NCBI GenBank assembly: GCA_963770895.1
Contig: CAVYRF010000002.1
Coordinates: forward strand, 5,344,001-5,408,000
Direction of reading: 5' to 3'
Length of the DNA: 64,000 nucleotides
Source of the DNA: an uncultured Acidobacteriota bacterium
GTDB lineage: Bacteria > Acidobacteriota > Thermoanaerobaculia > Multivoradales > UBA5704
The position numbers and the translations under genes were made by a program. How positions within the stretch are numbered: the stretch's first letter is position 1; every line of letters begins with the position of its first letter. The notes beneath the pieces were generated by a model that worked only from the letters and a program-made list of their open reading frames with translations, had not been told where the DNA came from and ran no database searches. Below are positions 3,125-37,106 of this stretch, one piece after another.

Positions 3125-3260
3125 GTGACTCTTTTGACGTCTCATCGTGTGGGCAGCATTATCCTCACATTGTGAAAGTGCCCCCGGACCGACGGTCAGC
3201 GCCTCCTGAACCGACGGCGTGAGCTCGGCCGCTCTCAACTGCCGGGAGCCCTCTGGCGCG
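3125..3260 (+). repeat. degenerate att-arm + HTH N-terminal stub
   Basis: GTGACTCTTTTGACGTCTCAT resembles GTTGCCCTTTTGCCGTCTCAT at 4620-4642 and 37063-37086; downstream PRTDGQRLLNRRRELGRSQ. Confidence 0.55.
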
Positions 3261-3360
3261 ATGAAGCGGTCGGTTGGCCGCGGAGAGCCAGAGTCGCCGC
3301 CGGGCGCCCTCGCTACCCTGCGGACGAGAGCGCCCGGTACCGGCGCCCGCCACCCACCTC

Positions 3361-3443
3361 GGGAGCAAGCTCCCTGCGCAGAGCCCCCCGCGTCCAGGCC
3401 ACCGCACGCAGGAGAAACACCTGGACGCGGGGGGCTCTGCGCA
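3361..3443. repeat. perfect 24-bp inverted repeat plus GGGAGCAAGCTCCC palindrome (REP-like)
   Basis: 3375-3398 TGCGCAGAGCCCCCCGCGTCCAGG pairs perfectly with 3420-3443. Confidence 0.85.
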
Positions 3444-3810
3444 ACGCTTGCGCCCTCGGATCTCGGTCTGGCCTCGCCAAGCGCGACCGGCGACGGCACG
3501 CGATCTTCGTGACCTCCAACACAAAGGATTTCGTGCGCGTGCCTGGCTTGAAGTGGTACGAGAGATCGATGACTGCGAAGTAGTAGGCCTGAGGTTCCAA
3601 TGGTGCCAGACACTCGGCATGCAGATCGATCGGGAAGCGTGGGCGAACTCTCGACCTCTTTCTCGCGCATGCGAGGCGCACCGGCAACATCAAGATTCTC
3701 GGCACTTCCCCGCACCATGAAGCCGAATCGCAGGCTGGTGATCCTGGATCTCTTTGCGATACGCCTGCTTTTTTGCTTATTAAGAAACCGGCCCAGATCA
3801 GCTCCGCGCA

Positions 3811-4192
3811 CTATTCGGCTCTCGTACCGGCCTCGCCGCGAATCGGCCGAAATCGGGCTCGGGCTGGCGTCCAGACTACGACCGCTCCAAGTAGACGCTC
3901 ACCCGAGGTTTCAACGAGAGCGACAATGGACGCCGGAAGTTCGCCACGAGACTGCTCCGGGCAGCGGATGAGGAGAACACCTTCCTCCCCGCCCAGGTCG
4001 GAGGCCACGGCCAGCTGTCCAAAAATCCTTGTCCTCAGTAAGCAGGACTCGGTGCTCGCGGCGGGAGCGAGCGAAGACTTCCCGGTCTAGCGCACCGCGA
4101 CTATCCTCAATGACCGCAACCACGTCGTGCCCTGCATCCCTGAGCGCCATGACCACGCCGTAGTCGCAGCTCTCGTCGGCAAGAAGGCGCAC
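3811..4192 (-). pseudogene. DUF5615 PIN-like toxin, frameshifted
   Basis: MRLLADE..GHDV..LLTEDKDF, then one extra T in the run at 4021-4025; continues as GVLLIRCP... in another frame. Confidence 0.8.
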
Positions 4193-4212
4193 AGGGCCGC
4201 CACGATCGCCCG

Positions 4213-4452
4213 TCAGGCCCGATGGGCAACGGTCTCGACGATCTCGTCGTTCGCTATGGTGTCGGCAGCGAAGGCGACAGCGGCACGGACATCATCCCGC
4301 GTGAGGTGCGGATAGGAGGTCAAGAGGGCTTCCTCAGTGGCTCCTTCGCTGATTCGGCGCAGGATCAGCTCCACGGGGACCCTAGTGCCACGAATGACGG
4401 GTTTTCCCAGCATCACATCGGGATTTGCTTCTATTCGCGCTGCTAGCTTCAT
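4213..4452 (-). CDS. DUF433 antitoxin
   Basis: IEANPDVMLGKPVIRGTRVPVELIL...YPHLTRDDVRAA. Confidence 0.92.
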   Translation of the reverse strand: MKLAARIEANPDVMLGKPVIRGTRVPVELILRRISEGATEEALLTSYPHLTRDDVRAAVAFAADTIANDEIVETVAHRA

Positions 4453-4593
4453 CGCTGAAACCCCTCCAGCCTGACCGATTCTATCCCAGGCAGCGGTAGG
4501 ACGGTCTTCAGGTTTTCCAGCTGCTCCCGCAGGAGGAGGATCGAGGTCCAGTGGTCGCTTCGCGGGGAACTTCCCTGGGTACGGGGCGCTATG

Positions 4594-4665
4594 TAGCCCG
4601 GACAGGGATGGGCGTCCTCAGAATGAGACGGCAAAAGGGCAACACACCCCTGGGGGTGCGATGGA
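4594..4665. repeat. att-like site, direct repeat of 37036-37106 (core CACCCC-TG-GGGGTG)
   Basis: GGCGTCCTCARAATGAGACGGCAAAAGGGCAAC shared with 37054-37086; minus strand reads LPFCRLILRTP. Confidence 0.75.
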
Positions 4666-5266
4666 CAGATGGCCCTATGCACGATTTCGCAAATCGCTAT
4701 GTTGCTGTTGACGCGACGCATTCTCTTCGACTTAGATACCTTGTAGCTGAAGAGACAATGGCGCGGTGGGTTGGAATTTAGGGGGAGGTCGATTGGCGAT
4801 GAACGCCGCGGAACGAAGGAAGCGTCATTGACAGCTAATCCCACAACAAGAAGGTACGGGTTGCTGCAATGCATGTCTCGAACTATAGTGGGTGGTTCTT
4901 TTGGATGAGGCATATAACTGACTACAATTATCGGCATCATCAGGATGTGGATGATGAGCAGAGTGGACAGGTTAAGGTAACTTGACGATAACGAAACATC
5001 ATTCCCGGGAAATCCTGCGCAAACTCGATTATCCGCAAAGTACGCTTGATTGTCTGAGGTGGGGACTCTCGTGGGCAACGGCGACAGGCAGAGCATGGAG
5101 ATCCGGTGCGCGCAGGGCTTTGACACAAATCGAGGAAGAGAGAGCACGATCGAGATGAACCCATAGCCCTTTGTCATGGTGGAACCCGGCGCACATCCGC
5201 TGAACCCGACGGTGCGAATCTCCATTGTTATAGTCTCTAGCCACGTCCTCCGCGGAGAGTGCTTTT

Positions 5267-7423
5267 ATGCGATGTAGAGAGACTGCCGTTGTCATCTCGT
5301 TATTCGTGGCCGCCATTGGCGTACCGCTTTCTGCGACGCAAAAGCCAACACCGATACTCGGCATCGTCGAACTCGGCACGGGCACCGAAATCAAATGGGC
5401 CGACGTCAAAAAGCCGAACGTGACGATCCCACTCACGATCGAGAACCTGACGAAAGGGCCGATCGAGAACATTGACGTCATGCTCACCCCGTTCAGCGGT
5501 TCCGGTCGCGCCGCCGACGCGACGATCGATGGGAAGGAGCCGCCCGCTACAATCAAGCTTCTGAGACCAAGCATCCCTGTGACCATCACGATCGCGGCGC
5601 AGCTCCCCGCGCCGGTGACCTACCGAGCGTATCTCCGCCTTCGCCAGGGCGGGGCCGCGCATTTGTTAGCAACGATCGAGATCGCCCGTACGCGATCCCC
5701 GCCGCCTATAGAGATCGGCACCGTGCAGGCGCGCATCGTTGAATTTGGGTTCCGTCTCTGTCCACAATCGGCCATCTTCGATACGACCATCACCGATCAG
5801 GGCGACTCGGTGAAGCTTAATTACGTCCGGCACTCAATTGAATACAGGGAGAAGGCTGACGGGAAGGAACCGATAGCTCCGCCGGGGCACGTCGACGTCA
5901 TCATCGAGCCCAGCAGCCTGCTTGCCGGCGCGACACCGCTTCCGGTAAAGATGACGGTCGCCGGCATATCGAGACCGGGCCGCTACGACGCTACGGTCGG
6001 CTTCGGCGGACCCTCTTACTCGGCGACAGATATGACGGCGGTGGTCTACGCACGCCAATCGTGGTACGTCGCCATAAGCTATATCCTCCTGGGCACTCTC
6101 GTCTCCCTCTTCCTTCGCTACTACGGCATAGTCGGACGCCCGTCGCTGCTCAAAAAGCAGCGCATGAACACTCTCTTCCGCGAGCTCGCTGAGCACGCAA
6201 CCGCGGCCGCCGATGACCCACCGGCACTGGCCGTCGTGCAGAACGTCCGGCGCCAGCTCACGGATTTCTGGAACGAGCTGTCGATCACCGGTAAGTTGAA
6301 AGAAACCGTGACGCTCGACGTATACGACGCGAAGATCGCGGCGATGCCGCAATGGCTGCAACTTCGCAGGCAAATTAAACGCCTCCAACCTGAGACGCTT
6401 CGCGAGCCTTTCGAGGTGAAGATCTCGGGAGTCGAGTCTGTTCTGCGCGACCGCACGGCGGAGACCGCTGCAGTGACTGCGCAGATCAAGATTCTGGACG
6501 CCATGCCAGCGGAGATCGACGCGGCTTTGAAGACGGAGCTCGAAACGCAACTCACCGCGTTGATGCAAAGCGTCGCTGGCGACACCCGCTTCGAAGACCT
6601 GGTTCCGCTGCTCGGAAAAGTGCGGACGGAGCTTGGTGCCGGCCGCCTCGAAGGCGCGGCGGTCGAGCTCGATCTCCTGCAACGGCGCTATGTCCGCCGG
6701 CTTGCGGATGATCTCGCTGCCCGCCTTACGCCCACGTCGCCAGTCGGCGTCAAAAAGCCGGAGTGGGACGCCACTGTGGCGACGATCATGGCTGACGTCG
6801 CCCGCGCGCGCAATGCCGCCACAGCCGCTGAGGCGCTCGAAGCGTTCCGCTCGGGGTTGACACGCTTCCTCCACGTCGTCGCGACCGGTCTGAACCAGGA
6901 TATCGCGGAAAAAATCAAAAAAGGCTCGCGCTTCGGAAAGGAATACGCCTCTGTGAACCCGCGGTTAGACGCCGTCTTAGCGGCGCTCGATCAGGGTGAT
7001 CTCGTCGTCGCGTGGCGCAGACTCGACGAAGCGCAGACCGACTACGCCAAGGTAGTGAGAGAAGCGACCGCTGGTGTTCTGGGCGACGGGGAACAGCTGG
7101 CGATGAACGCCCTCGCCGCGGCGACAAATGGGTCAGGCGCCTCTGCCGGCTTCGACATCGTCGATATCTTCGTCGGTAGATCGTCGGCCGATGAGGTTTC
7201 ACGTCCAGAGTCGATGAAGTCGATCAGGACCATGCGCCTTGCAGGCGACATCGCTGCGTCGCTGTTTGTCATCCTTGCCGCGAACCTCATCGGGCTGCAG
7301 ACGCTCTGGATCGGCAACCTAACCTGGGGCGGATGGCCGGCAGTCATCGCGGCATTCCTCTGGGGTGTCGCCTTCGACCAATTCAGCCACGCCGGCCTCT
7401 CAGCCCTGATTCGGAAGGGGTAA
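5267..7423 (+). CDS. membrane protein: signal peptide, beta-rich ectodomain, TM, long helical region, C-terminal 2TM
   Basis: 718-aa ORF with hydrophobic N-terminus, central TM (WYVAISYILLGTLVSLFL) and C-terminal LIGLQTLW..WGG..AAFLWG hairpin. Confidence 0.75.
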   Translation: MRCRETAVVISLFVAAIGVPLSATQKPTPILGIVELGTGTEIKWADVKKPNVTIPLTIENLTKGPIENIDVMLTPFSGSGRAADATIDGKEPPATIKLLRPSIPVTITIAAQLPAPVTYRAYLRLRQGGAAHLLATIEIARTRSPPPIEIGTVQARIVEFGFRLCPQSAIFDTTITDQGDSVKLNYVRHSIEYREKADGKEPIAPPGHVDVIIEPSSLLAGATPLPVKMTVAGISRPGRYDATVGFGGPSYSATDMTAVVYARQSWYVAISYILLGTLVSLFLRYYGIVGRPSLLKKQRMNTLFRELAEHATAAADDPPALAVVQNVRRQLTDFWNELSITGKLKETVTLDVYDAKIAAMPQWLQLRRQIKRLQPETLREPFEVKISGVESVLRDRTAETAAVTAQIKILDAMPAEIDAALKTELETQLTALMQSVAGDTRFEDLVPLLGKVRTELGAGRLEGAAVELDLLQRRYVRRLADDLAARLTPTSPVGVKKPEWDATVATIMADVARARNAATAAEALEAFRSGLTRFLHVVATGLNQDIAEKIKKGSRFGKEYASVNPRLDAVLAALDQGDLVVAWRRLDEAQTDYAKVVREATAGVLGDGEQLAMNALAAATNGSGASAGFDIVDIFVGRSSADEVSRPESMKSIRTMRLAGDIAASLFVILAANLIGLQTLWIGNLTWGGWPAVIAAFLWGVAFDQFSHAGLSALIRKG

Positions 7424-7426
7424 ACC

Positions 7427-10400
7427 GTGCCGTCAAATCGATACACGCGTATCGACACTCTACTGCGCGTCCGGCGGTTCGGCAAAATTTTGGTGCTCGA
7501 TCTGGGCGGTGAGACGATGAACTTCGATGCCGCGACGCCCGAGACTGACTGGCTCGATCTGGTTGCGGCCTGGCCGGCGGTCGTCGCTGCGGCGAAGCCG
7601 GAGGGCAGCGAATACGACCTTCACCGCGTCACGATCCATGTCGAAGAGCAATCGCTGGCGGCTCTCGATTGGGAGCCTCTCTTCGTCGACCGAGCCGCTC
7701 CGACGTGGTCGCAACGGTGCGTCGTGCGGGTCTCATCAGTTCCTGCTCGCGTGATGCAGTTTCCGTTTGCTGTTCCGGCGCGAGTGCTGGAGATCGGTTC
7801 GCCGCGCGTCGTGAAGGAGGCGGTTGACGCGGCGCTGGGCGGTTCGTACGACACGTCCGCTCTCATCGTCGGCTCTACCCAGCCACTCCTGGCGCGGAAG
7901 TTCGTGCAGCGATCCTCCTGGGCCACGGCAGACATCCTCCATTTGCACGATATCACCGAGGACGCCGACCTCGTGCTGCGGACGTCGGCTCCCGACATAC
8001 CCGGGACGCTTGGCTGGATTCTTCGTGCGTGCATGCAGTGGCAGACCCGTCTGGCGATCATTGAGGTACCACCTGCACGGCTCGCGCTCGTTCGCCGACT
8101 GGGGCATGAGATTATCGAGCGCGGTGGCCCGGCGGTGATCGTCGGTCCCAACGACGGCGTCGATCGCGTGACCCTCTACGCATCGATTCTCCACGACCGA
8201 CCGTTCGATTGGGTGAAGCAGTTCCAGCCTGCAGCGGTGCTCTTCGCCGGTGGAGGCCGCGAGGAAGCCCTGCGATTCTCGCCGGCTGGAGAGCGCCTCT
8301 CGGAGCCAGTTACGAAGGATGCGATCGTCGCGGCGGTGGCTGAAGCGAGCGAGGGATTCCAGACAATCGCCTCGGCGAACACCCCTCCGCCACGCGAGGT
8401 CGTTCTCGACTCGATCTTCCATGCGGCCGGAGAGTTACGCCTGACCTCCGCCGACAACGGCCTCAGCATCGGATGGAGTCCTGCTGCCCGAATTCGCTTC
8501 GCCGACACGGTTGCTGGCCGCATGCTGCAGAAGGGCTTCGTTGTCCGGCCACTGGACGACGACGTCTCGGCGCTGCCACTGTCGCAGTACGTGCCAATCG
8601 ACGCGCTCGCCGCCATGGTCACGACGAAGTCTCTGCCGCTCGACTATGTCCGCGACCTTCGGACGACGCCCAGCATGGACGACATCGTTCGCGAGGGGCT
8701 CGACAACCTTTCGACGTCGGTCGCGCGTCTCGAATTCGAGTCGCACGAGTCGGACGGCACCCTGCCACTGGCCGTCAAGACGGTCAATCTGCGAAATCTG
8801 GTCCGCGTCGCCCGGCCGCATCTCGCTCCGGTGACGACTCCGGCAGCGACTCAGTCGCGCCACGTCAACGCCAACTTCTTAAGGCCCGATCTCCTCCTTG
8901 GCAAGGACGGCCGCGTCGCGCAGGACGGCGCGCGTCTCAGCCCGGGCGAAGAAGTGCATCTCGGTATCCGCATAGGCACGAAGGATGAGCAGACCATCAC
9001 AATCGGTGACCTCGTTCTGTTCGAGGAGGCCTTTCCCTGGAGCAGCGGCGCCGATGGGTGTTGGCTCGAGATTGGCGTCACGCCGATGGACTTCGACAAC
9101 CTCGGCGCTCCGGTGCAGGAGGTCTGGCTTCCTCGCGAAGGCCAAATGCAACTCGTCACGTTCGCGCTCTCGCCGCGCGCGAAAACCCTGATGCCGGGCG
9201 TTGCGAGTGTCCGCTTCACGTTTTACTACCAGAACAACGTCGTGCAGTCGTTCCGCGTCGCAGCGCTGCTCACGACGGCGACCGGCGATACGGCATCGGA
9301 CCTGGCACGGGCGCTCGATATTGACCCGAAAGAAGTCCCGGCGGGCGCCGGCTACCTAGCGCGCCTCGAGTACAGCGCCGCCGACCCAACTCAAGCTGAA
9401 ACTCTCGCGCGGCGTTCGCTCTCGATTGTCGCCAACGAGAGCGCAGGCCAAAAGGTGTTCAGCATAAAAGGCAACGATTTTTTCAGCTCTACGGTCAACA
9501 GCGATATCGCGAACATGGTCCAGGCGGCGCGCGACGCACTGCGAGACGCGTCGGTCAACGATGACCTGAAGGAATACCGATACGACCCTATCGACAATAG
9601 TGGCGAGAGCGCCGAGCTCATAGACCGGACAATGCAAGTGGCACGGAGAGGATGGGAGCTCTACACCCAGATTCTGCCCGAAGAATGGGCCCATAAGGCC
9701 GTCGCGGATCTTCTCGGCGATGAAGGCGTCATCACTGCGGCCCACATCGACCTGGATCACGTTGTCCCCTGGTCGTTAATCTATGATCAGCCGGTCGACG
9801 ACGCCCATTCCGAGGAAGACGTCGAGGAAAACGGCGTGTGGAAGACCTACGACGTTGCGCGCGCTGTCTGCCCATCCGGACTTCCGGCAGCCGATGCCTC
9901 GTTGCCATCTGGCGCCTGCGGCACGCGCGCCGACTGCTTGCTCTACGGCGCCGACGCCAATAAGAGGAAAATCGTAGGAAACGTCATGTACTGCCGAGAC
10001 AGAGTCATCTGTCCGCGCCACTTTTGGGGCTTCGCGCATCAGATCGAAGTGCCGGCGCAGCAGAAGCAGCCGAAGCAGGAACTGAAGCAGCCGGCCCGGC
10101 TTATCGGCAAAGAAATTACGGCCGGAATTCTCGGCGCCGTCGCGGTCGGCTACAACCCCAACGTGCGGCTCGCTAAGGAGCACGTGCAAAAACTGAAGAC
10201 GCAGCTCCAGGCACGCGCGCCGATCCAGGAGCCCCGCGCACAGAGACGGAACCTCATCAAGGCATTCCTGGCATCCGTTCAGCCCGATGTCGTCTATCTC
10301 TACTGCCACGCATACACGGACACAGCCGCGGCGCCGGGCAAGCCTGATCCAAACCTAGACTTCGGCAAACGTGCGGCGAGCGACATAATGTCCCCTGCCG

Positions 10401-10771
10401 ACTTCAACGGCACCCCATGGACGCACGGGCCGCTCGTGTTTCTTAACGGGTGCGGGACGGTCGGCTTCAATCCAGCTGCACCTTCCCGGTTCATCGCGCA
10501 GTTCATCCAGAGCCGGCACGCATCAGCCGTCATTGGCACCGAGGTCACAGTATGGGAGGAACTGGCTTCGGAAATGGGGGCGTTGTTCCTCGAAGAGTTC
10601 CTCGGCGTTGGCAAAGGGGAGAAGGGACAGCCGCTCGAGCCGAAGTCTGCGGGTCTTGCTCTCGTGCGCGCGCGGCGCAGGTTGCTGCGCAAAAACAATC
10701 CCCTCGGTCTCGTCTACACGCTCTACGGCTCTGCCGACCTGCACATCGTCTTTCAGGCGCGCGTTCCCTGA
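7427..10771 (+). CDS. CHAT-domain (caspase-like) peptidase protein
   Basis: C-terminal VYLYCHA (His) and LVFLNGCGT (Cys) dyad, AVIGTE, NNPLGLVYTLYG; 3 bp after upstream gene. Confidence 0.8.
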   Translation: MPSNRYTRIDTLLRVRRFGKILVLDLGGETMNFDAATPETDWLDLVAAWPAVVAAAKPEGSEYDLHRVTIHVEEQSLAALDWEPLFVDRAAPTWSQRCVVRVSSVPARVMQFPFAVPARVLEIGSPRVVKEAVDAALGGSYDTSALIVGSTQPLLARKFVQRSSWATADILHLHDITEDADLVLRTSAPDIPGTLGWILRACMQWQTRLAIIEVPPARLALVRRLGHEIIERGGPAVIVGPNDGVDRVTLYASILHDRPFDWVKQFQPAAVLFAGGGREEALRFSPAGERLSEPVTKDAIVAAVAEASEGFQTIASANTPPPREVVLDSIFHAAGELRLTSADNGLSIGWSPAARIRFADTVAGRMLQKGFVVRPLDDDVSALPLSQYVPIDALAAMVTTKSLPLDYVRDLRTTPSMDDIVREGLDNLSTSVARLEFESHESDGTLPLAVKTVNLRNLVRVARPHLAPVTTPAATQSRHVNANFLRPDLLLGKDGRVAQDGARLSPGEEVHLGIRIGTKDEQTITIGDLVLFEEAFPWSSGADGCWLEIGVTPMDFDNLGAPVQEVWLPREGQMQLVTFALSPRAKTLMPGVASVRFTFYYQNNVVQSFRVAALLTTATGDTASDLARALDIDPKEVPAGAGYLARLEYSAADPTQAETLARRSLSIVANESAGQKVFSIKGNDFFSSTVNSDIANMVQAARDALRDASVNDDLKEYRYDPIDNSGESAELIDRTMQVARRGWELYTQILPEEWAHKAVADLLGDEGVITAAHIDLDHVVPWSLIYDQPVDDAHSEEDVEENGVWKTYDVARAVCPSGLPAADASLPSGACGTRADCLLYGADANKRKIVGNVMYCRDRVICPRHFWGFAHQIEVPAQQKQPKQELKQPARLIGKEITAGILGAVAVGYNPNVRLAKEHVQKLKTQLQARAPIQEPRAQRRNLIKAFLASVQPDVVYLYCHAYTDTAAAPGKPDPNLDFGKRAASDIMSPADFNGTPWTHGPLVFLNGCGTVGFNPAAPSRFIAQFIQSRHASAVIGTEVTVWEELASEMGALFLEEFLGVGKGEKGQPLEPKSAGLALVRARRRLLRKNNPLGLVYTLYGSADLHIVFQARVP

Positions 10772-11464
10772 CTTCGTGCGCCTTGAAGGTCGGGACCGTG
10801 TGCCTCACGAGAGTCTTGACATCGGCTGTGCGGTTTCCCGTCTCATCGAGGGTGGCGAGCTCGAGCGACCCAAGCCCGAGCGGCAAGTTCCACCTTTCCA
10901 TGTCCCCCGCCTCTCGGCAAAGGGATCTGCGCTTCGCGGGGAGCGCCGAGCGGGCCGCCGAACGCGGTCCCCGCCGGCCCCACAGCTCCCTAGACTAGGC
11001 CTAGGTCGCCCAACTCGGCGCGCCGTCGGCGGGCCAGAGCATGGTCCCCGATGTCATCGCCACCGACAACGTGAATCTGCCGAGGCGCCGGCCGGCCAGC
11101 TCCTAGCTCTTCGGGGCGCAAGGCAGAGCGCTGATCTCGGCAGTCATACGGAGGCTCCTTGTGCTGAGGTTTCGTTCTGCTGCTCGCTCCCCGTCTTCGC
11201 CGGGAACGCCGAGCTGGTGATCGGCTCGAGCATCCTGGGGCGCTGCCCGGGGCGTTGTCGCCCGGTCGCAGGCCTGCAAACTGATCTCCGACGCGCCGCC
11301 GCCTTCCGGATCGGCCATCGGTGGCGGATCGGTCCCGGCTGGCGAGTCTGCGGCTTGACCCAATCCGAGCTTCACCGTCGCTGCGCTCCGACCAGGATGG
11401 TCGCCTTGCGTCGAAACGGGTACCGCCATCGTCGGATTCCGCATTCTCGTCACGGGCCGCTGGG

Positions 11465-12718
11465 CTAGAAGACCCGCCACCATGGCGCTGCCAGCACTCC
11501 GTCGGCCAGCCAGGCAATCTCGCTTCCGGTGTGCAGCAGCAGGCCGGGGCGTGCACGGTCCGCGTACTCCTGCCGGAACAACTTGAGCGAGCGCACATCC
11601 GCAAGGGAAGGGCGGCGCCCGGTCTTCACCTCGATGGGAAGCAGCATCCCATCCTGCTCGATGACAAAGTCCACTTCGTCGCCCGCCACGGTGCGCCAGT
11701 ACAGGATCTCGGCCTCCACCGGTGATGAGTCCCGCCAGGCCAGCAGATCCTGAAGCACCAGGCTTTCGAGGTGAGCGCCCTGCGGTGTCGTTTCGCCTGC
11801 CAGGTGCATCGCCAGACCCGTATCGCACCAGAAGACTCGGGGGGTCTTGAGCAGGCGCTTCGTGCGGTTGACAGTGAAGGCAGGCAGGCGGACCAGTTGG
11901 TAGGTGGTCTCGAGCAGGTTGAGGTGGCGATGCACCGTGGGTTGGGACATCCCGATATCGCGGGCCACCTCCGTCTGATTGAGCAGGCCCCCGAGCCGCA
12001 GGCAGATCGCCCGCATCAGTCGCCGAACATCCACCAGCGACGCCACTGCCGAGATCTCCAGCAGATCGCGTTCGAGGTAGGTTCTGACATAGCCGGCGAA
12101 CCAGGCGGACCGCGCCTCGGCATCGTCCAACTCGTGGGCGGGGGTCGGATAGCCGCCGCGTCGCGCCAGCGCGCGCCAGTCCTCCTCCGGGGCAGTCTCG
12201 GCGGAAAGCACCGCAGGCCAGTCGCGATCAGCGGCCGCCAGCAAGCGCGACCAAGCACCGGTGGTCCCCAAGCCAAGCTGCTCACGACGAGTGAGCGGCC
12301 AGAGCGTGAGATAGGCAGCCCGCCCCGCAAGCGATTCGGAGATTCGCCGCATCAGAAGCAGGTTGGCAGAACCAGTGAGCAGGAACCGGCCCGGCGTGCG
12401 GCGCTGGTCGATTGCCCGCTTGACCGCCAATAGCAGGTCCGGGGATCGCTGGACCTCGTCGAGCGTCAGCGGCCCCTCGGCGTTGGCAACGAGCGCCGCC
12501 GGTTCGAGCCGCGCGCGCTCCAGGACATCCAGGTCGTCGAGGGTGAGATAAGCTCGCTGCGGCTTGCTCGGCAGTTGCTGCACCAGGGTTGTCTTGCCGG
12601 TCTGCCGGGCGCCGGTGAGGACGACTGCCGGAAACGACTTGAGGAGAACGGCCAGGCGGGGCGCAAGGAATCGCGACAGGGTGCGGGATGGTTCATTCAC
12701 GCCGCGAATGATATCCAT
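11465..12718 (-). CDS. AAA_14 ATPase with DUF4143 (PD-(D/E)xK-like) C-terminus
   Basis: GARQTGKTT, LDEVQ, LTGSA, ESLAGR, EVDFVIE..LLPIEVK. Confidence 0.92.
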   Translation of the reverse strand: MDIIRGVNEPSRTLSRFLAPRLAVLLKSFPAVVLTGARQTGKTTLVQQLPSKPQRAYLTLDDLDVLERARLEPAALVANAEGPLTLDEVQRSPDLLLAVKRAIDQRRTPGRFLLTGSANLLLMRRISESLAGRAAYLTLWPLTRREQLGLGTTGAWSRLLAAADRDWPAVLSAETAPEEDWRALARRGGYPTPAHELDDAEARSAWFAGYVRTYLERDLLEISAVASLVDVRRLMRAICLRLGGLLNQTEVARDIGMSQPTVHRHLNLLETTYQLVRLPAFTVNRTKRLLKTPRVFWCDTGLAMHLAGETTPQGAHLESLVLQDLLAWRDSSPVEAEILYWRTVAGDEVDFVIEQDGMLLPIEVKTGRRPSLADVRSLKLFRQEYADRARPGLLLHTGSEIAWLADGVLAAPWWRVF

Positions 12719-12742
12719 TCACCGCATGAATAGCAACCCATC

Positions 12743-12820
12743 TACGCCTCGGCGACCGAGCTTGAGAAGTTCGCCCGACTCTACAAGAAGCCGCTCACGT
12801 TCTTCCTCAGCGGCGACTAA
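12743..12820 (+). pseudogene. XRE-HTH C-terminal remnant
   Basis: ATELEKFARLYKKPLTFFL* is a typical XRE tail; no N-terminus. Confidence 0.45.
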
Positions 12821-12932
12821 GGGCAGCCTCTACCCGGGGACGCCGGATCGCGCCGCGCTTCCGAGGCACCGCGGCGCCGGAACGAGCCTGAGCAGGTGGG
12901 GCTAGGATTCCTGCGCCTTGCGCGCGGTGACT

Positions 12933-13394
12933 CTAGGGGCAACTCGGAAAGCCGGCGGTGTCATAGACCGGCATCGATGTCTGGTTCAAGGCATTCGAGT
13001 AGACCCGCCCCTTGCCGGTCTTCAGGTCAATGACCTCAAGCGTGTATGCGACGTTCGTGAGTCCCGCCGTGAAGACCCAATAAGCGTTGAAGGGCTCGAC
13101 GCAGGCGTCGATCACCTTCACGAACAGCTCGGGATCGTCCGCGTCGAAGAACCAGAACCAGCCCCCGCCGAGGACGGGGCTCTTGTCCGTGTGGAAGAGC
13201 GGCACCGCGTGGCCGCCGCCCGCCAGGCCGCCCCCGGCGTCGTAGTTGACCGCCACTTCGAAGCGGTCGCCGACACCCAGGCAGAGGGTGGTGTCGTTAG
13301 CCGTGCAGTTGTAGGACTGTTGGGTCTCGGCCGAGGAAGCCCTGGCGCCCGCCAGCACGAGGAAGGCGCCGAGGACGGCGATGCTCCGCTTCAT
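12933..13394 (-). CDS. secreted protein with one Thermoanaerobaculia-type FWFF repeat domain
   Basis: Signal peptide; LCL..RFEV..WFWFFD..PELFVKVIDAC..YWVF..LTNV.Y, paralogous to the domains in 40160-41440. Confidence 0.8.
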   Translation of the reverse strand: MKRSIAVLGAFLVLAGARASSAETQQSYNCTANDTTLCLGVGDRFEVAVNYDAGGGLAGGGHAVPLFHTDKSPVLGGGWFWFFDADDPELFVKVIDACVEPFNAYWVFTAGLTNVAYTLEVIDLKTGKGRVYSNALNQTSMPVYDTAGFPSCP

Positions 13395-13843
13395 GGTTCA
13401 CCCCCTTGCTTCATAGAGGACACGCGACAAACCGCTTTGTTGGGTCGGGCCTGCCGTCTAGTCTCGTCGCGCTCCCAGGCAGAGACGGTCGAAGGGTCGA
13501 GGCCGAACCGGCGAGCTAGCGCTTCCGCGGAGAGTCCCGCAGCCTGCCGCGCGGCTCTGACCCGCCCGCCGAAGGTTCCTGGCTCCGGCCGCGGGTCGTA
13601 GCCGAGAAAGGCGAGGATGCCGGGCAGGAAGCGCAGCCCAGGCGCGCCCCGCCCCGCCTCCCAACTCGCAAGGCTCGCCTGCGAGCAGCCGATCTCGTGG
13701 GCCGCGTGTCTCTGGCGGAGGCCGCGGTCAAGGCGCGCCCGCCTGAGATGCTCGCCAATGGTCCGGGGTGCCTCCGGGTAACCCTGCGGACTCGACTTCC
13801 GTCCTCGTAAGCGGACACGAACACTTATGCACGCGGCCCCAGG
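13391..13843 (-). other. start-less open frame encoding a tandem XRE HTH (putative alternative C-terminus of the 34291 recombinase)
   Basis: 151 codons including the stop, no internal stop: PGAACISVRVRLRGRK..GYPEAPRTIGEHLRRARLDRGLRQ..LASWEAG..FLGYDP..RAARQAAGLSAEALARRFGLDPSTVSAWE; TGA overlaps ATG of the next gene; absent from the ORF track. Confidence 0.8.
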
Positions 13844-14316: not shown

Positions 14317-14331
14317 CCTAAGACCAACCCT

Positions 14332-31196: not shown

Positions 31197-34190
31197 ATGA
31201 CCCGCCCCACCCTGCCAGAGCACCTGACCGAGCAGTTCTACGCCTGGGAACTGCGCGGTCGGGGCTGGCAGGAGTTTTCCTCTGCGGTCGCACTCGAACC
31301 GCCCTACGTTCCTTTCCCCGGATACTTCCTCCCGCCGATCAAGGACGACGGCCACCGGCCGGGTCTCCTTGGCCGCCTCCTCGCGCCGGCCCTGCCGGCA
31401 GAAGAACCGCTGGAGCTTGAGGAGCCCGAACCGGAAGCGTTCGAGAGCGAGGAGTCGCTTGTCGAGTGCGTGGTCTCGCTGCCGCGGGACGAAGCGGTCA
31501 AAGCGGAGAGCGCCGAGCGCTTCCTCCTATCGCTCTCCGGCGCCGAGCTGCCGCTTGCCTTCGAGGTGGTGGGCCTGCACGATCAGCTCCGCGTGCAGCT
31601 CGTCTCCCGAGCGCCGGATGCGGGACTCCTCGCAAACCAACTCCGGGCCTTCTTCCCCGAGGTCTCGATCGCGGCTGAGCCGGAGGGGCTGCGACAGGTA
31701 TGGAAGAAGAACGAGAGCGAGACCATCCTTGTCCACTTCGGCCTGGCGCGCGAGTTCATGCTGCCCCTCTCTTCTTTCCGGTCCCTCGACCCCGATCCGC
31801 TCCTGCCGCTTTTCGGGGCGCTCGCCGAGCTTGAAGCCGGCGAAGCCGGCCTCGTGCAAGTCCTCTTTGAGCGAGTCCGCGAGCGGTGGGCCGAAAGCGT
31901 CATGCGCGCCGTCGTGACCGGGGGCGGCGAACCCTTCTTCGCCGACTATCCAGAACTCACGAAGGCTGCGCGGGAGAAAGTCTCCCGGCCCCTGTACGCC
32001 GTCTGCCTGCGGATAGCAGCGAAGAGCAGCGATGCGACCGGCGCTTGGCGGATCGTGCGCGATCTTGCCGGAGCACTGACCCATTTCGGCGCTCCTGGCG
32101 GCAACGAGCTTCTCCCGCTAGCCTCCGAGGAGGGTGCCGACGCAACCGAGCAAATCTTCGAGAGGGTGAGCCGCCGGCCGGGCATGATCGTAGGAAGCGA
32201 TGAGCTGGCGGCCCTCGCGCACCTCCCGAGCGCCTCAGTGCGGGTGCCGAAATTCCTCCGGGAGATACGGCGCTCGAAAGCGGCGCCCGCTCTCTCCCAA
32301 GGCGCGGGGATTCTTCTTGGCGAGAACCTTCATCACGGCAAGACCCTTGCCGTGCGGCTGCCCAATGATCTCCGTCTCCGGCATCTCCATGTGATCGGCG
32401 CCTCGGGCTCCGGCAAGTCCACTCTTCTCATCGATCTCATCATGCAGGACATCGAAGAGGGCCGGGGCGTCGGCGTCCTCGACCCTCACGGCGATCTCGT
32501 GGATGAGATCGCAGGCCGCATCCAGAAGGCGCGACTTCAGGACGCCATCCTCTTCGACCCGGCGGACACTGCCTACCCGGTTGCCTGGAACATCCTCGAA
32601 GCCCACAGCGAGCTGGAGCGCACGCTCCTTGCCTCGGACCTCGTTGGTATCTTCCGCCGCTTCTCGACTTCCTGGGGCGATCAGATGACCTCGGTCTTGG
32701 GGAACGCGGTCTTGGTGCTCCTGGAGAATCCCGGCTCGACCCTGCTTGACCTGCGCGAGTTCCTCGTGGATCGGCAGACCCGCGAGCGCTTGCTTGCCGC
32801 GGTCGATGATCCATACCTCCTCTCGTACTTCCGACACGAGTTCGCTCTCGCGGCCGGGAAGAGCGTGGGCGCGATCCTCACCCGCCTTGATGGCTTCCTG
32901 CGCTCAAAGACCGTGCGGCAGATTGTTGGCGCGAGGGAGAGCCGGCTCGACTTGCGCTCGGTCGTGGACCGCGGACAGATATTCCTGGCCCGGCTCTCCG
33001 AGGGCGCGATCGGCGAAGAGAACGCTGGGCTCTTGGGCTCCCTCCTCGTCTCCAAGTTCCACCAGATCACGATGAGCCGGCAGGAGGTGAAGCGGGAGGA
33101 ACGCCGTCCCTTCTTCCTCTACGCCGACGAATGCCAGGAGTTCGCAACGCCCTCCATGGCGCTCCTCCTTTCGGGAGCGAGGAAGTACGGCCTGGGGCTC
33201 GTCCTCGCCCACCAAGACCTGCGCCAGCTCGAAGCGAAGGCCCCGGAGGTTGCCTCCGCTCTCCTCGGAAACGCCGGAACGCGCATCGCCTTCCGCGTCG
33301 GCGACCGGGATGCGAAGGCGCTCTCTGAGGGCCTATCCTTCTTCGGACCCGGTGACCTCATGAGTCTCAAGGTAGGGGAAGCCATCGCCCGGATCGACAA
33401 CTCCCAAGGGGACTGCAACCTCAAGACGCAGCTCTTGCCGGCGGTCGCGGCAGAGACCGCCACGGAGCGGCACGACGCGATCACCGCTCACTCGCGGGAG
33501 CACTACGCCGTGCGGAGAGAGGAGCGGCAGAGAGCGGCAGAGCCGGCGCCAGAGGTGGCACGGCCGGCACCTCCGCTGGCGGAAAGGACGTCACCGCCGA
33601 CCCCGGCCCCACCAGCACCTGCCCCGCCGCAACCGGCACCGGCTCGCGAGCGGCGCCCATCGCCGGTAGAGCCCGCACCACTCGGCCGCGGTGGGCCGGA
33701 GCATCAGTATCTCCAAGAACTCGTGAAGCGATGGGCGGAGGCCAAGCGTTACCGCGCGACGGTCGAGGAGCCCTTGCCCTCGGGCGGCCGGGTGGACGTG
33801 GCCCTGCGGCGCGAGGGGCACGCGGTCGCTTGCGAGATATCGGTCACCACGACCGCCGAGCACGAGGTCGGCAACGTCCTGAAGTGCCTTGGGGCGGGCT
33901 TCGATGATGTGGTCCTCCTCTCGCTGCATCGCGGCACGCTCGGCAAGGTGCGGCAGGCGGTAGAAGCCAGGGTCGAGGGGAAGGACCGGGGGCATCTCCA
34001 CTTCATGAGCCCGGAGGAGTTCTTCACGTTCCTTGACGCTCCGGCGCCGGCCGCCACCGAGACAACGGTAGGCGGGTACAAGGTGAAGGTGAAGTACCGG
34101 GCGGCCGAGGGTGAGGCAGCTTCGAGGAAGAGCAAGGCGGTTTCGGAGATACTCCTCAAGAGCGTGAAGCGGATGAAAAAGGAGGAATAG
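31197..34190 (+). CDS. VirD4/TraD-like coupling ATPase with C-terminal PD-(D/E)xK-like domain
   Basis: HLHVIGASGSGKST, DPHGDL, YADECQ, ARKYGL, AHQ; Pro-rich linker; GRVDVAL..ACEISVTT. Confidence 0.88.
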   Translation: MTRPTLPEHLTEQFYAWELRGRGWQEFSSAVALEPPYVPFPGYFLPPIKDDGHRPGLLGRLLAPALPAEEPLELEEPEPEAFESEESLVECVVSLPRDEAVKAESAERFLLSLSGAELPLAFEVVGLHDQLRVQLVSRAPDAGLLANQLRAFFPEVSIAAEPEGLRQVWKKNESETILVHFGLAREFMLPLSSFRSLDPDPLLPLFGALAELEAGEAGLVQVLFERVRERWAESVMRAVVTGGGEPFFADYPELTKAAREKVSRPLYAVCLRIAAKSSDATGAWRIVRDLAGALTHFGAPGGNELLPLASEEGADATEQIFERVSRRPGMIVGSDELAALAHLPSASVRVPKFLREIRRSKAAPALSQGAGILLGENLHHGKTLAVRLPNDLRLRHLHVIGASGSGKSTLLIDLIMQDIEEGRGVGVLDPHGDLVDEIAGRIQKARLQDAILFDPADTAYPVAWNILEAHSELERTLLASDLVGIFRRFSTSWGDQMTSVLGNAVLVLLENPGSTLLDLREFLVDRQTRERLLAAVDDPYLLSYFRHEFALAAGKSVGAILTRLDGFLRSKTVRQIVGARESRLDLRSVVDRGQIFLARLSEGAIGEENAGLLGSLLVSKFHQITMSRQEVKREERRPFFLYADECQEFATPSMALLLSGARKYGLGLVLAHQDLRQLEAKAPEVASALLGNAGTRIAFRVGDRDAKALSEGLSFFGPGDLMSLKVGEAIARIDNSQGDCNLKTQLLPAVAAETATERHDAITAHSREHYAVRREERQRAAEPAPEVARPAPPLAERTSPPTPAPPAPAPPQPAPARERRPSPVEPAPLGRGGPEHQYLQELVKRWAEAKRYRATVEEPLPSGGRVDVALRREGHAVACEISVTTTAEHEVGNVLKCLGAGFDDVVLLSLHRGTLGKVRQAVEARVEGKDRGHLHFMSPEEFFTFLDAPAPAATETTVGGYKVKVKYRAAEGEAASRKSKAVSEILLKSVKRMKKEE

Positions 34191-34290
34191 AGAGGGTCGG
34201 AGCCCGCGACCCGAGCCGAGGAAATATCCCAAGATGTGATATTTTTGGCTGGTTGAGGAAGACGATAAATCCGCAGGAAAGCGAGTGGTT

Positions 34291-35850
34291 ATGACCAAGG
34301 CAAAGCAAGCCGACGAACCGGCCTCTAAGCGCGTCGCGATCTGGATAAGGGTCTCGACCGAGGACCAGGCAAGGGGCGAGAGTCCCGAGCACCACGAGCA
34401 CCGCGCCCGCGGCTACGCCGAGATCAAGGGCTGGCAGGTCGTGACCTTGTATAACCTCGCCGGCGTCTCGGGCAAAGCCGTCATGGCCCACCCCGAAGCC
34501 CGCCGCATGATGGAGGACGTGAAGGCCGGCCGCATCTCGGGCCTCATCTTCTCCAAGCTCGCGCGCCTGGCCCGCAACACCAAGGAACTCCTCGACTTCG
34601 CCGAGTTCTTCAAGACCGAGGGCGCCGACCTCATCTCCCTTCAGGAATCTATCGACACCTCGACCCCCTCCGGCCGCTTCTTCTACACCATGATCGCCGG
34701 CATGGCCGCCTGGGAGCGAGAGGAGATCGCCGAGCGCGTCTCGGCCTCGGTCCCGATCCGGGCGAAGCTCGGCAAACCCTTGGGCGGTGCGGCTCCCTTC
34801 GGCTACCGCTGGCACGAGAAGCGGCTCGTACCCGACCCCGAGGAAGCGCCCGTCCGCCGCCTCATCTATGAGCTGTACATTGAGCACGGCCGGTTCCTCA
34901 CGGTCGCGCGACTCCTGAACGAGCGGGGATACCGCACGCGAAACGGCGGCAAGTTCTCGCACACGACCGTCGAGCGCCTGGTCCGTGACCCCACTGCCAA
35001 AGGCACCCGCCGCGCGAACTACACAAAGTCTCTCGGCGACGGCAAGAAGTGGGTCCTGAAGCCCGAGCACGAGTGGGTGGTCTCCGAGGTGGAGGCCATC
35101 GTTCCCGAGGAAATCTGGAGCGCGGCGAACGCCCTACTCACGGAGAAGCGAGCGGGAAAGCCCCGCATCGCCCGCCGGCCGGTGCAGCTCTTCTCCGGCC
35201 TCACCTTCTGCCACTGCGGGACCCGGATGTATGTCGGCAACACCCCGAAGTATTTCTGTAAGTCTTGCCGGAACAAGGTGCCGCAGGCGGACCTTGAGCG
35301 CGTCTTCCGGGAGCAACTGCGCCAGTTCGCGCTCTCCCCGGAGGAGGTTGCTTCCGCTCTCCATGAGGCCGATCGGGAGGTGGAGGCCAAGGCAGACCTC
35401 CTCCAGGCACTGGTGCGCGAGGATGCCCGCCTCGCGGACGAGGCCGAGAAGGTCTACCGCCTCTACCTCGCGGGCGAACTCGACCCCAAGGGCTTCGGGG
35501 CGCGCAACCGCCCGCTGGCGGCGCGGCGCGAGGAACTCGAAGCCGAGATCCCCCGGCTCCAAGGTGAGATCGACTTCCTCAAAATCCAGCATCTCTCCCA
35601 GGAAGAGGTCGTCACCGGAGCCCACGACCTCTACGAGCGCTGGGACGACCTATCCCAGGAAGACCGCCGCGGCGTCATCCAGGCCATCGTGGAGCGGGTG
35701 AGCGTTGGCAAAGACGAGATCGAGATCACCCTTGCCTGCCTTCCGAGGACCGCGGAACACCCGCCGCCCCCGCCTCCTCTGAAGATTGCGAACACTTATG
35801 CATACAACCCTGGGGATTCGTGCACCTTCTTGATCCGGTTCCGAGCCTGA
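34291..35850 (+). CDS. large serine recombinase with an att site in its 3' end
   Basis: WIRVSTEDQ, SKLARLARN, APFGY, CHCG..YFCKSC. Confidence 0.95.
   Translation: MTKAKQADEPASKRVAIWIRVSTEDQARGESPEHHEHRARGYAEIKGWQVVTLYNLAGVSGKAVMAHPEARRMMEDVKAGRISGLIFSKLARLARNTKELLDFAEFFKTEGADLISLQESIDTSTPSGRFFYTMIAGMAAWEREEIAERVSASVPIRAKLGKPLGGAAPFGYRWHEKRLVPDPEEAPVRRLIYELYIEHGRFLTVARLLNERGYRTRNGGKFSHTTVERLVRDPTAKGTRRANYTKSLGDGKKWVLKPEHEWVVSEVEAIVPEEIWSAANALLTEKRAGKPRIARRPVQLFSGLTFCHCGTRMYVGNTPKYFCKSCRNKVPQADLERVFREQLRQFALSPEEVASALHEADREVEAKADLLQALVREDARLADEAEKVYRLYLAGELDPKGFGARNRPLAARREELEAEIPRLQGEIDFLKIQHLSQEEVVTGAHDLYERWDDLSQEDRRGVIQAIVERVSVGKDEIEITLACLPRTAEHPPPPPPLKIANTYAYNPGDSCTFLIRFRA
35789..35837 (+). 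mobile_element. serine recombinase att-like site (core TG at 35811-35812)
   Basis: CGAACACTTATGCA TACAACCC TG GGGATTCG TGCACCTTCTTGATCCG; partner at 13818-13867. Confidence 0.8.
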
Positions 35851-35990
35851 ATTCCTACCAAGTGGCTGGGGCCTCTCCCGCTGGGACCGGCCACTCGCTG
35901 GCCCACCATCACAGCACCGCTGGTCTGGCGGGCTCGTCTCGCCCAGGCTACAGCGTCCGGCGCGAGTTGGCACCGCCCTCCCTCGCTCTA

Positions 35991-36100
35991 GACAGATGGG
36001 AAATTCGCGTCGGCGAGTGCATACACGCGCGCATTGACGACGGGCTGCATCACGCAACCTTTATGATCTTGCTGCTTTCGCGCTACGCGGTGACTTACGA
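35991..36100 (+). pseudogene. TIR-domain N-terminal remnant
   Basis: DRWEIRVGECIHARIDDGL..FMILLLSRYAV. Confidence 0.55.
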
Positions 36101-36226
36101 CACGTGGACGGGATATTCGGGCCTCTGACGTATCTGACCATGGCGGAGGCCGCAAAGAACATGGAGTGACGATTGAGCGCGCGCTCGGGTATCGCCTCAT
36201 GCTGAGGTGGACATGCCCGCGTCCGA

Positions 36227-36568
36227 TCATGGCAGCTCCTTTTCGATGCGCTCCAGCAAGCTCAGCACCTGAACGACATCCGTGCTCACGATCTTCCAGA
36301 GCGTGGCGTTGTCGAGCGTGAAGTAAGCATGCGCCAGTACGTCCCGTAGACCCGCGATCCCTCGCCAGTCAACTTCGGGATGGCGCTGCCGAATGTCCTC
36401 TGGCATTGCTTTCGCCGCCTCGCCGAGGATCTCCAAGTTGCGCAACGTGGCGTCGTATACCATTTCATCGGCAACGAAGTCCTCGACCTTTCGGCTGCCG
36501 GTATAGCGGATGATCTTCCGGGCTGCCTCCAGCATGTCCCGCAAGAAGAGCTCCCAGCTACGCGACAC
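36227..36568 (-). CDS. HepT/DUF86 HEPN ribonuclease toxin
   Basis: RNLEILGEAAK, W..IAGLRDVLAHAY (Rx4HxY). Confidence 0.92.
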   Translation of the reverse strand: MSRSWELFLRDMLEAARKIIRYTGSRKVEDFVADEMVYDATLRNLEILGEAAKAMPEDIRQRHPEVDWRGIAGLRDVLAHAYFTLDNATLWKIVSTDVVQVLSLLERIEKELP

Positions 36569-36851
36569 GAATCGCCTCAGCCTCCACCCAAGGCCGCGCC
36601 CAGGACTTCAGCGCCTTCTCCATGACGAGATCCACGCGGCGCCCCAGGCGATCTTCGATCCAGAACTTGAGACTCATGTACTCAGACAAACCCGGAGTCT
36701 CACGGAACCCAACCAGGATATCCACGTCGCTGTCCGGTCCCGCTTCGTCTCGCGCCACAGAGCCAAATAATGCGAGCGAGCAGACGCCGAATCGCTCCAT
36801 CAGCTCCTGCCGGTGGGAGGAGAGAAATCTGAGCACCTCATCTCGTCTCAT
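36558..36851 (-). CDS. MntA-like minimal nucleotidyltransferase antitoxin
   Basis: LFGSVARDEAGPDSDVDILV, RVDLV. Confidence 0.92.
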   Translation of the reverse strand: MRRDEVLRFLSSHRQELMERFGVCSLALFGSVARDEAGPDSDVDILVGFRETPGLSEYMSLKFWIEDRLGRRVDLVMEKALKSWARPWVEAEAIRVA

Positions 36852-37035
36852 GGCCTGGTTCCTCCGGGAGATTGTGGGCCCGAGCCGTCGCCAGCACCTA
36901 GACATCCTACCAGTGCTGACGGGCCGGCACCCCTGCCCCCAGCAACTGCCGCTGGGCGCATCGGTAGGGAGGCTGATCCGCCGCAAGGCGCTATTTCGGG
37001 AGTGCTCGCCCAAAGGGGTCCGAGGTACCAGGGGA

Positions 37036-37106
37036 TAGCCCGACAGGGGGAAAGGCGTCCTCAAAATGAGACGGCAAAAGGGCAACGAACCCCTGACCCT
37101 GCGTTG
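37036..37106. mobile_element. att-like right boundary of the island (CAACG-N6-TG-N6-CGTTG)
   Basis: Symmetric site at 37083-37106; repeat of 4594-4665; GC and codon style change to core-like immediately to the right. Confidence 0.7.

Follow-up and report, generated by a model that had tools for sequence, protein, structure and literature searches.

Why should the start of a single regulatory gene recur, in decayed copies, along one island of a bacterial chromosome? The question is raised by a 64-kb stretch of DNA (the window) from an uncultured Acidobacteriota bacterium, C2:5344001-5408000 of a genome of 8.16 Mb in three contigs. GC content is 56 to 67% up to ∼38 kb, a low-GC island, and 69 to 79% further right. 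The original prediction held that decayed copies of an N-terminal helix-turn-helix (HTH) peptide begin at arms resembling attachment (att) sites, at nine listed or hinted places. Of these, four sites with five arm stubs hold up, together with one doubtful arm. We judge it probable that the repeats are attachment sites of integrative elements encoding large serine recombinases (LSRs), and that the island grew by tandem accretion, nesting, and inversion at secondary sites.

Four sites carry the repeated arm

On the minus strand at 13391 to 13843 lies a gene for a double-HTH XRE regulator with a C-type arm (Pfam HTH_3, 2.7e-19; HTH_31, 8.3e-19). A database search with its product returned 54 relatives sharing the N-terminal extension C-x-V-T-L-R-G-R-x-x-R-P-G-Y-P-E-x-P-R-T-L-G-E-H-L, with a second subtype of the form LPFCxLxL...YP...GDHL, and the "stub peptide" is therefore a real family feature. 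Copies in the window were scored with a hidden Markov model (HMM) of the N-terminal peptide and with a DNA profile of the arm, the latter built solely from 31 arms of other genomes. Each was controlled with 30 shuffles (dinucleotide shuffles for the peptide HMM), of which the best score is quoted. A tblastn search at an E value of 10 was flooded with GC-rich noise.

Four sites proved real, with centers at 4651-52 (S1), 13840-41 (S2), 35811-12 (S3), and 37094-95 (S4). At S2, the peptide HMM scored 59.4 bits within the regulator gene (13742 to 13834, minus strand) and 54.8 bits (13845 to 13934) in a 36-codon A-type regulator stub, MHAAPGLRAPFVIRLRGRILRPGYPQNRRTLGEHLK* (13827 to 13937, plus strand), against a best shuffle of 12.4 bits. 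The two face each other head to head across a palindrome centered at 13840-41, as expected from the claim that two stubs diverge there from one core. At S4, the E-type arm and regulator stub LPFCRLILRTPFPLSGYPLVPRTPLGEH (37093 to 36990, minus strand) reached 12.3 bits with the peptide HMM, which is not above the shuffles, and 19.6 bits with the DNA arm profile, against a shuffle maximum of 6.3; external E-type profiles gave 13.6 bits (protein) and 18.8 bits (DNA). The E-type arm and stub at S1 (4650 to 4570, minus strand), which reads LPFCRLILRTP and then frameshifts, scored 6.8 bits with the peptide HMM (noise) and 23.1 bits with the DNA profile, against the same maximum of 6.3. These two stubs form a 59-nt direct repeat, 83% identical, and S1 and S4 were the sole window matches of the profile of 31 foreign arms. 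At S3, about 12 codons are left of a plus-strand stub that starts at 35798/35813 (MHTTLGIRAPS*); this copy is supported by a 40-nt, 80% repeat of 13818 to 13857 and by a paralogous site at C2:4642654.

The remaining places fared differently. The copies claimed at 10990 to 11130 (minus strand) and, as weaker ones, near 1900, 2420, and 11150 scored at most 2.2 bits with the peptide HMM, which is noise, and none of them, nor 3125 to 3260, rose above shuffles with the peptide HMM, the E-type protein profile, or the E-type DNA profile. Within the last of these a possible decayed E-type arm, S0, occupies 3118 to 3146 (plus strand): 20 of 29 bases equal the E arm, and CTTTTGACGTCTCAT at 3131 to 3145 is the 15-nt arm core motif with one mismatch. 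At up to two mismatches this motif has three matches in the window, against 0.08 expected by chance. We regard S0 as doubtful.

A trivial explanation would be chance similarity among arginine- and proline-rich peptides in GC-rich DNA. The five places that do no better than shuffles fit it, as does a 14.4-bit peptide match at 31960 to 32001, out of frame within the coupling-protein gene described below, which we set aside as chance. Nevertheless, all four core sites stand well clear of their DNA or peptide controls, and copies recur at island borders across the genome. Chance is refuted for S1 to S4 and stands for the weak copies; as an account of the whole, its probability is negligible.

Arms are swapped at a shared core

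Seven LPFC-type copies from the genome were aligned and the core was scanned for, and every site has the same anatomy: an arm, CCC-(CA or TG)-GGG, and a second arm. Arms of ∼20 to 40 nt each surround a central dinucleotide that is TG on one strand and CA on the other, and the core is present at the four window sites and at more than 12 genome sites. Read outward from the center, an arm encodes the N terminus of a double-HTH XRE regulator. We distinguish the E arm (GVLPFCRLILRT), the C arm (AACISVRVRLRG), the A arm (LRAPFVIRLRG), the B arm (GFIHKLPPCRV), and a further variant, the D arm, which in this genome is present at C2:3481506. S1 joins an E arm on the left to an arm termed X1 on the right (core cacccc-TG-gggg). 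S2 (13813 to 13870) has the C arm of the minus-strand regulator on the left and the A stub on the right, and the ATG of that stub (13827) sits in the partner arm, left of the center. At S3 (35789 to 35850) the left arm is the 3′ end of a recombinase gene, LSR2, and the right arm is a variant, A′. S4, whose outer arm runs to 37115, has an E arm on the left and a chromosomal arm, ACCCTGCGTTGAC, on the right. S1, S3, and S4 share one polarity (TG on the plus strand); S2 has the opposite one (CA on the plus strand).

Comparison with sites elsewhere in the genome revealed swapped arms. The site at C2:3492523 consists of the window E arm (29/29 bases) joined to the window A arm (28/29) exactly at the core: it shares with S1 the E arm up to "cacccc," after which the two diverge, and with S2 the A arm from "CAggg" onward. 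Similarly, S3 and C2:4642654 have the LSR2-end arm in common up to TGggg and then diverge. Both arms of S2 have 29/29 matches, and a 97.5% identical S2 copy lies at C2:3487623-3487783. The breaks lie no more than ∼3 nt from the core, and flanking homology is absent. Serine recombinase crossover has just this signature, strands being exchanged at one fixed central dinucleotide with no need for homology on either side, as is established for LSRs generally. These data support the conclusion that the repeats are att arms of serine recombinase elements and that related elements appear to have recombined at each other's arms, the central TG being the presumed point of exchange; the joined E and A arms at C2:3492523 are what the idea that such elements target their relatives' att arms leads one to expect. 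Nor is a dead gene what each of the "decayed HTH stubs" primarily represents. Its arm would instead be an attP half-site laid over the regulator 5′ end; in intact family members across phyla, the arm overlaps the first codons of the regulator.

S1 and S3 probably delimit a 31-kb element with a terminal LSR

Contigs from four soil metagenome runs were placed on window positions 2500 to 22000; runs X5 to X8, which contain just small portions of the stretch, did not enter this comparison. One contig, from soil run X1, follows the window to 4655 and continues with 30 bases identical to 35816 to 35845, the right arm of S3. This junction of the S1 left arm and S3 right arm has no copy in the assembly, where each arm is unique. 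The contig leads us to take S1 and S3 as the ends of an integrative element of 31,160 bp (4653 to 35812, plus strand). An allele lacking these 31,160 bp appears to exist in nature and could be ancestral or an excision product. Other loose ends at S1, in soil run X2, join the E arm to an LSR-end-type arm absent from the assembly, and several further ones are paralogues within the source genome.

At the right end of the element lies LSR2 (34285 to 35850, plus strand; Resolvase PF00239, 6.4e-31; Recombinase PF07508, 2.3e-21), whose last 13 codons cross S3, its 3′ end forming one arm of the site. A second LSR gene, LSR1, is internal (18351 to 19985, minus strand; Resolvase PF00239, 1.2e-21; Recombinase PF07508, 2.1e-9; Zn_ribbon_recom PF13408, 1.7e-9). 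LSR2, or possibly LSR1, would be the catalyst of the exchanges. The element also carries a type IV coupling protein of the TrwB/TraG-D-like kind (31197 to 34190, plus strand; Pfam, 1.3e-14), a primase (found as a zinc-ribbon protein), candidate defense genes, and, internally, S2. Other window genes encode an S24 peptidase, a Ser/Thr kinase-tetratricopeptide repeat protein, and an extracytoplasmic function sigma factor.

The LSR2 and C-type regulator reading frames are in phase across the central TG (35809 to 35814 versus 13843 to 13838), which has a one-in-three likelihood by chance. An LSR2-end arm joined to a C arm would be expected to read through as a single open reading frame (ORF). A search for such LSR-regulator fusions among longer database proteins gave seven matches, none with a recombinase domain, which is weak negative evidence.

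Related elements interrupt comM in other genomes

Where else do such arms occur? Relatives of the regulator were found at 78 loci in many phyla. A 3′ fragment of the competence helicase gene comM (yifB) is present at 48 of these loci by ORF clustering of the neighborhoods, and tblastn places it immediately upstream, in opposite orientation, at no fewer than 45 (33 under a strict distance rule, plus 12 with alignments that overrun that rule). In five loci that were read, the comM frame stops just before CPCGY and the element starts with ...GC GTTGCCTTTTTGCC, encoding (A)LPFC; comM would accordingly be the usual target, and the cut would fall on the TG in the codon for the first Cys of CPCGY. 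From GTTGCC to the GDHL anchor the distance is 76 nt in 31 of the 39 loci that have the motif. D- and B-type arms are likewise joined to comM (L002, L011, and L016, the first two with D arms), and head-to-head regulator arms like those of S2 recur in other genomes (L003 and L004).

Ten genomes were checked for Resolvase and the comM N-terminal domain. In six (G001, G002, G005, G036, G037, and G038), an LSR reads out toward the comM 5′ fragment; in five of these six canonical cases both ends are on one contig, and the element spans 36 to 50 kb. Three others have a comM insert of just 4 to 7 kb, without an LSR. In the tenth (G003, locus L038), the comM 5′ fragment lies at 6.349 Mb and the 3′ fragment with the regulator at 8.343 Mb, ∼2 Mb apart, which points to a large rearrangement involving copies of the element. 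A second, internal LSR like LSR1 of the window is present in four of the six canonical elements (G002, G036, G037, and G038); it could belong to a nested element, or the design could rely on two recombinases, as with CcrAB. In 6 of the 78 loci, an LSR2-like gene immediately precedes the regulator in the same orientation, as would be expected at a circle junction or in a tandem pair.

The regulator start itself bears a double constraint. Third positions of codons 2 to 4 carry 0.77 to 1.11 bits versus 0.27 to 0.40 bits elsewhere, making them about threefold more conserved, whereas codons 5 to 24 show an ordinary protein-coding pattern; codon 1 and part of codon 2 are fixed in this count by the way loci were selected. 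Because the third positions of codons 2 to 4 are unusually conserved, the arm appears to be a DNA site laid over a translated N terminus. LPFC-type (E-like) arms at L005, L007, and L010 abut a different interrupted gene (at L010 the opposite strand reads ...FMQYVGSNLAREVNRLTGWS), indicating that some family members probably use a target other than comM.

Could the palindromes instead be operators through which XRE regulators control their own genes, spread by duplication and homologous recombination rather than LSR crossover? Operators often are palindromic and overlap the regulator start, as these sites are and do; past codon 5 the peptide is conserved as protein, and several site clusters have no LSR nearby. 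Against this, in the loci where comM adjoins the arm, comM coding sequence, joined at a fixed codon, takes the place of half of the supposed palindrome, and in the six canonical genomes an LSR stands at the far end. Homologous recombination would also have to account for arm swaps that break next to the core without flanking homology, for an arm formed by the LSR2 3′ end, and for an empty-site allele that joins two unlike arms exactly at the core. We consider operators alone a very improbable explanation, although the two roles are not exclusive and the regulator could bind there too.

Searches for described relatives gave little. A tblastn of the regulator against 50,697 phage records yielded three weak matches, matches to known plasmids were LSRs less than 30% identical, and no described relative was found among either. 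Literature on comM and serine recombinases comprised the case of phage WO and papers on comM as a hotspot, with no description of a regulator-capped family. The loci represent a family of regulator-capped LSR elements that disable comM in soil and sediment bacteria of many phyla, with the arm GCGTTGCCTTTTTGCC beside CPCGY as its signature.

In the source genome the elements probably occupy secondary sites

Is comM occupied here as well? It is intact, a 528-amino-acid frame at C2:∼5026.4-5028.0 kb, and no insertion lies inside it; we therefore read the sites of this genome as secondary. The comM site, AAC CTG TGT CCG TGC GGC (N-L-C-P-C-G-H), differs from the CCCC-TG-CCCC context of occupied sites, and this divergence might be the reason for the use of other sites by the elements. 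Of the 13 positions of the comM half-site CCCCTGCGGCTAC, 9 agree with the chromosomal arm of S4. Beyond it lies an ArgZ-like chromosomal gene (37149 to 38288, minus strand; Pfam, 1.7e-70), 83 to 87% identical in congeners. Homology to these congeners starts at 37159 to 37177, 65 to 80 nt right of S4, which places S4 at a synteny break, in line with the expectation that stubs mark such breakpoints. Congener DNA left of the ArgZ-like gene is syntenic with another contig of the source genome (C1:649-671 kb). Scans for tRNA genes and Rfam families found neither in the 64-kb window.

Related sites are found at C1:68-125 kb (with two LSRs), C1:816 kb, C1:1999-2002 kb, C2:3481-3493 kb, and C2:4620-4643 kb. 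At C2:4620618-4642654 the canonical layout is preserved: arm, TG, and regulator at one end, truncated LSR2, TG, and arm at the other. An XRE gene at one end and an LSR at the other is a combination seen there and in the six canonical genomes; the ends within the window keep stubs only.

Two small units flank the 31-kb element, each 1.3 to 1.5 kb long, without a recombinase, and with arms and one toxin-antitoxin pair. The right-hand unit (35813 to 37093) holds MNT (36558 to 36851) and HepT (36227 to 36568), both on the minus strand (36227 to 36851; Pfam, 3.5e-15 and 5.6e-26). Left of S1 (∼3118 to 4650), the pair is DUF433 (4213 to 4452) and a PIN-like DUF5615 gene (3911 to 4192), again on the minus strand (3911 to 4452; Pfam, 3.3e-22 and 1.1e-14). 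A congener has a 96% identical copy of this module (3789 to 4528), adjoining an A/A head-to-head site and an LSR2-like 3′ end. Small cargo behind the stubs had been described as toxin-antitoxin pairs and TIR or relaxase fragments; the pairs are borne out, the TIR match is weak (E value 9e-4, below the Pfam cutoff), and no relaxase fragment was seen.

Further left, a DUF433-like gene fragment (1657 to 1838, minus strand; 60 amino acids, no Pfam match) appears to be a cargo remnant with no recognizable upstream arm; it is 85% identical to C1:68288-68483, where the copy follows an E arm. The left 4.6 kb of the window is nonsyntenic in nine congeners, in which only pieces recur (1148 to 1656, 96%; 1657 to 1873; 3789 to 4528, 96%). 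Because this part lacks synteny, the island or its debris probably extends past the left end of the window.

How the island may have been assembled

The attachment-site reading suggests a mechanism. The P′ arm, on the regulator side, would overlap the opening codons of the double-HTH XRE regulator that the element itself encodes, and the arm at the other end would overlap the LSR gene 3′ end, giving an excised circle in the order LSR, attP, regulator. In this genome, elements would have entered the comM-like intergenic site downstream of the ArgZ-like gene, S4, and then the arms of earlier arrivals. The order proposed, from right to left, is chromosome; S4; a 1.3-kb remnant (E stub, MNT/HepT, A′ arm); S3; the 31.16-kb element (LSR2, coupling protein, primase, second LSR) up to S1; and a second remnant (E stub, DUF433/DUF5615), possibly ending in S0. 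Without the element, the same order would run from the ArgZ-like flank through S4, the MNT/HepT remnant, a joined site, and the DUF433/DUF5615 remnant to, perhaps, S0. Since S1, S3, and S4 share polarity, pairs of them should be able to delete the DNA between them; recombination with S2, head to head and of opposite polarity, should invert.

The internal site S2 complicates this scheme. The layout requires either that S1 recombined with S2, with inversion, or that S2 received a nested insertion. Left of S2, an AAA_14/DUF4143 ATPase segment (11350 to 12752, 1.4 kb; PADLOC PDC-S01, 2.9e-112) is 99.6% identical to C2:3487864-3489267, a copy that is inverted and on the opposite side of the S2 copy. 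By its look, the segment was either duplicated recently or forms a small mobile unit of its own.

Several observations weigh against this account. Recombination is deduced from sequences, and none was observed directly. Classical LSRs recombine only attP with attB, or attL with attR when a directionality factor is present, and for that reason recombination with resident hybrid sites is not textbook behavior. The regulator gene of the window may be dead: it has no ATG, GTG, or TTG start, and its C terminus, unlike that of the family, has been replaced, homology to paralogues ending at 13453 to 13456. The opposite polarity of S2 forces an ad hoc inversion or nesting step. The empty-site allele comes from one contig in one of four runs and may be ancestral rather than a product of excision, and the reciprocal circle junction was not seen among the loose ends listed. 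At S1, the right arm is a weak regulator-type arm, and the putative attP combining the LSR2-end arm with the X1 arm makes a poor inverted repeat (∼9/21 by eye). An empty site was sought in congeners and none was recovered, while the ArgZ-like gene is conserved. Finally, direct LSR-to-regulator adjacency is confined to the six loci noted above out of 78.

A bolder extension, which we hold to be rather unlikely, is that the att arm serves as a landing pad that propagates itself and is tied to a regulatory switch, an XRE regulator assembled by recombination in soil bacteria of many phyla. The A-type ATG in the partner arm (13827 and 35798) makes the regulator start and 5′ region span the crossover, and C-type genes depend on the partner arm for any start codon. 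On this view the P′ half-site, written into the regulator start, resembles a comM half-site. If the idea is correct, every resident element or remnant would offer further places to dock, growth, nesting, and inversion of arrays would be possible even in genomes whose comM cannot be used, and the regulator would be complete, or cotranslated with the LSR, in certain recombination states only. An attP that overlaps a regulator start codon would be a testable case of expression coupled to integration state. Short, well-defined att sites with varied arm combinations could also help in choosing LSR/att pairs for genome engineering.

Probably a composite island rather than an integron-like array

Does the array nonetheless work like an integron, as first proposed? 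One resident serine recombinase would then capture small promoterless cassettes, each an att arm with an HTH stub, at a fixed site. Some features have that look: the two small recombinase-less units with toxin-antitoxin cargo between arms (35813 to 37093 and ∼3118 to 4650), the DUF433/DUF5615 module beside arms in a congener too, and the cluster at C2:3481-3493 kb, where four sites lie within 11 kb without an LSR, together with IS21, a PDC-S01 gene, and an MNT-like gene. Integrons, too, consist of small units arrayed between recurring recombination sites. However, no fixed capture site with a promoter accompanies the units. They measure 1.3 to 31 kb, complete elements that have LSRs and transfer genes of their own are among them, and they lie in mixed orientation with head-to-head sites. 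Across many phyla, the arms form the ends of elements that target comM, and the small units resemble what a deletion would leave if both arms were retained. Unlike an integron, the island has no IntI, attI, attC hairpins, or Pc promoter, and its units are elements or remnants bounded by LSR-type arms, with no Rfam match. A Pfam scan that took in ∼50 window ORFs, and was not exhaustive, detected no tyrosine integrase, as had been stated, and no phage structural gene. Tandem and nested pile-up is what survives of the claimed integron-like accretion array; capture of promoterless cassettes by a resident integrase, with attI and attC, does not, and we regard it as distinctly improbable.

The tandem units of the window, separated by same-polarity sites and partly without a recombinase, instead recall other composite islands. 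In staphylococci, the staphylococcal cassette chromosome (SCC) islands at orfX/rlmH, moved by the CcrAB serine recombinases, consist of tandem units with same-polarity att-type repeats; some units (pseudo-SCC) lack a recombinase, any pair of sites can excise, and two LSR genes per element are common. The window shares with them the tandem same-polarity units, units lacking a recombinase, and a second LSR inside the element. It differs in its target and arms, in that the arms overlap the regulator start and the LSR 3′ end, in its head-to-head, inverting sites, and in the coupling protein that its elements carry.

Accretion of integrative and conjugative elements (ICEs) and cis-mobilizable elements (CIMEs), as with ICESt1 and ICESt3 of Streptococcus thermophilus, proceeds by integration of a newcomer into a resident attL or attR, the residents decaying to integrase-less, att-flanked remnants. 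There, tyrosine integrases act at the 3′ ends of tRNA genes or fda, whereas the window has a serine recombinase and att arms that are coding sequence. In our reading the array resembles SCC composite islands and CIME accretion and not an integron. Tandem accretion of mobile islands is known already; the variant here is the placement of att arms within the first codons of a regulator. With the primary site unused, elements would settle at one another's arms and toxin-antitoxin remnants would stay behind, yielding composite islands rich in candidate defense genes.

Integration into comM has precedents. The sr1WO prophages of Wolbachia phage WO are reported to integrate by an LSR into a magnesium-chelatase (comM-like) gene, with the recombinase at one end and an HTH_XRE regulator at the other; a secondary, intergenic attachment site and later rearrangements that split the prophage are described as well (PMC9203015). 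WO is a tailed phage with single-domain XRE genes, whereas the window element encodes a coupling protein and a primase; moreover, the window regulator has a double HTH with a conserved N-terminal extension, and comM is unoccupied in the source genome. Work on the Tn7-like AbaR islands and other elements presents comM as an insertion hotspot for diverse mobile elements, often with defense genes (PMC11472951). AbaR islands move by Tn7-like transposition, and in that paper serine recombinases are mentioned only in a plasmid search (PMC11472951).

Other genes of the window

Among further genes of the 31-kb element, two proteins with a metallo-beta-lactamase fold (15004 to 16092 and 16740 to 17852) match the candidate defense family PDC-M48B (6.3e-88 and 1.5e-31), and this pair adjoins the S24 peptidase gene at 14574 to 14984. 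Just inside the left end of the element, two large neighboring ORFs (5267 to 7423, 718 amino acids; 7427 to 10771, 1,114 amino acids) have no Pfam or PADLOC match. At the left edge of the window (1 to 821), a 5′-open ORF contains three to five repeats of the motif ...F(K/R)T.DGG..W (direct repeats D1 to D4), which we take to resemble BNR/sialidase-type repeats.

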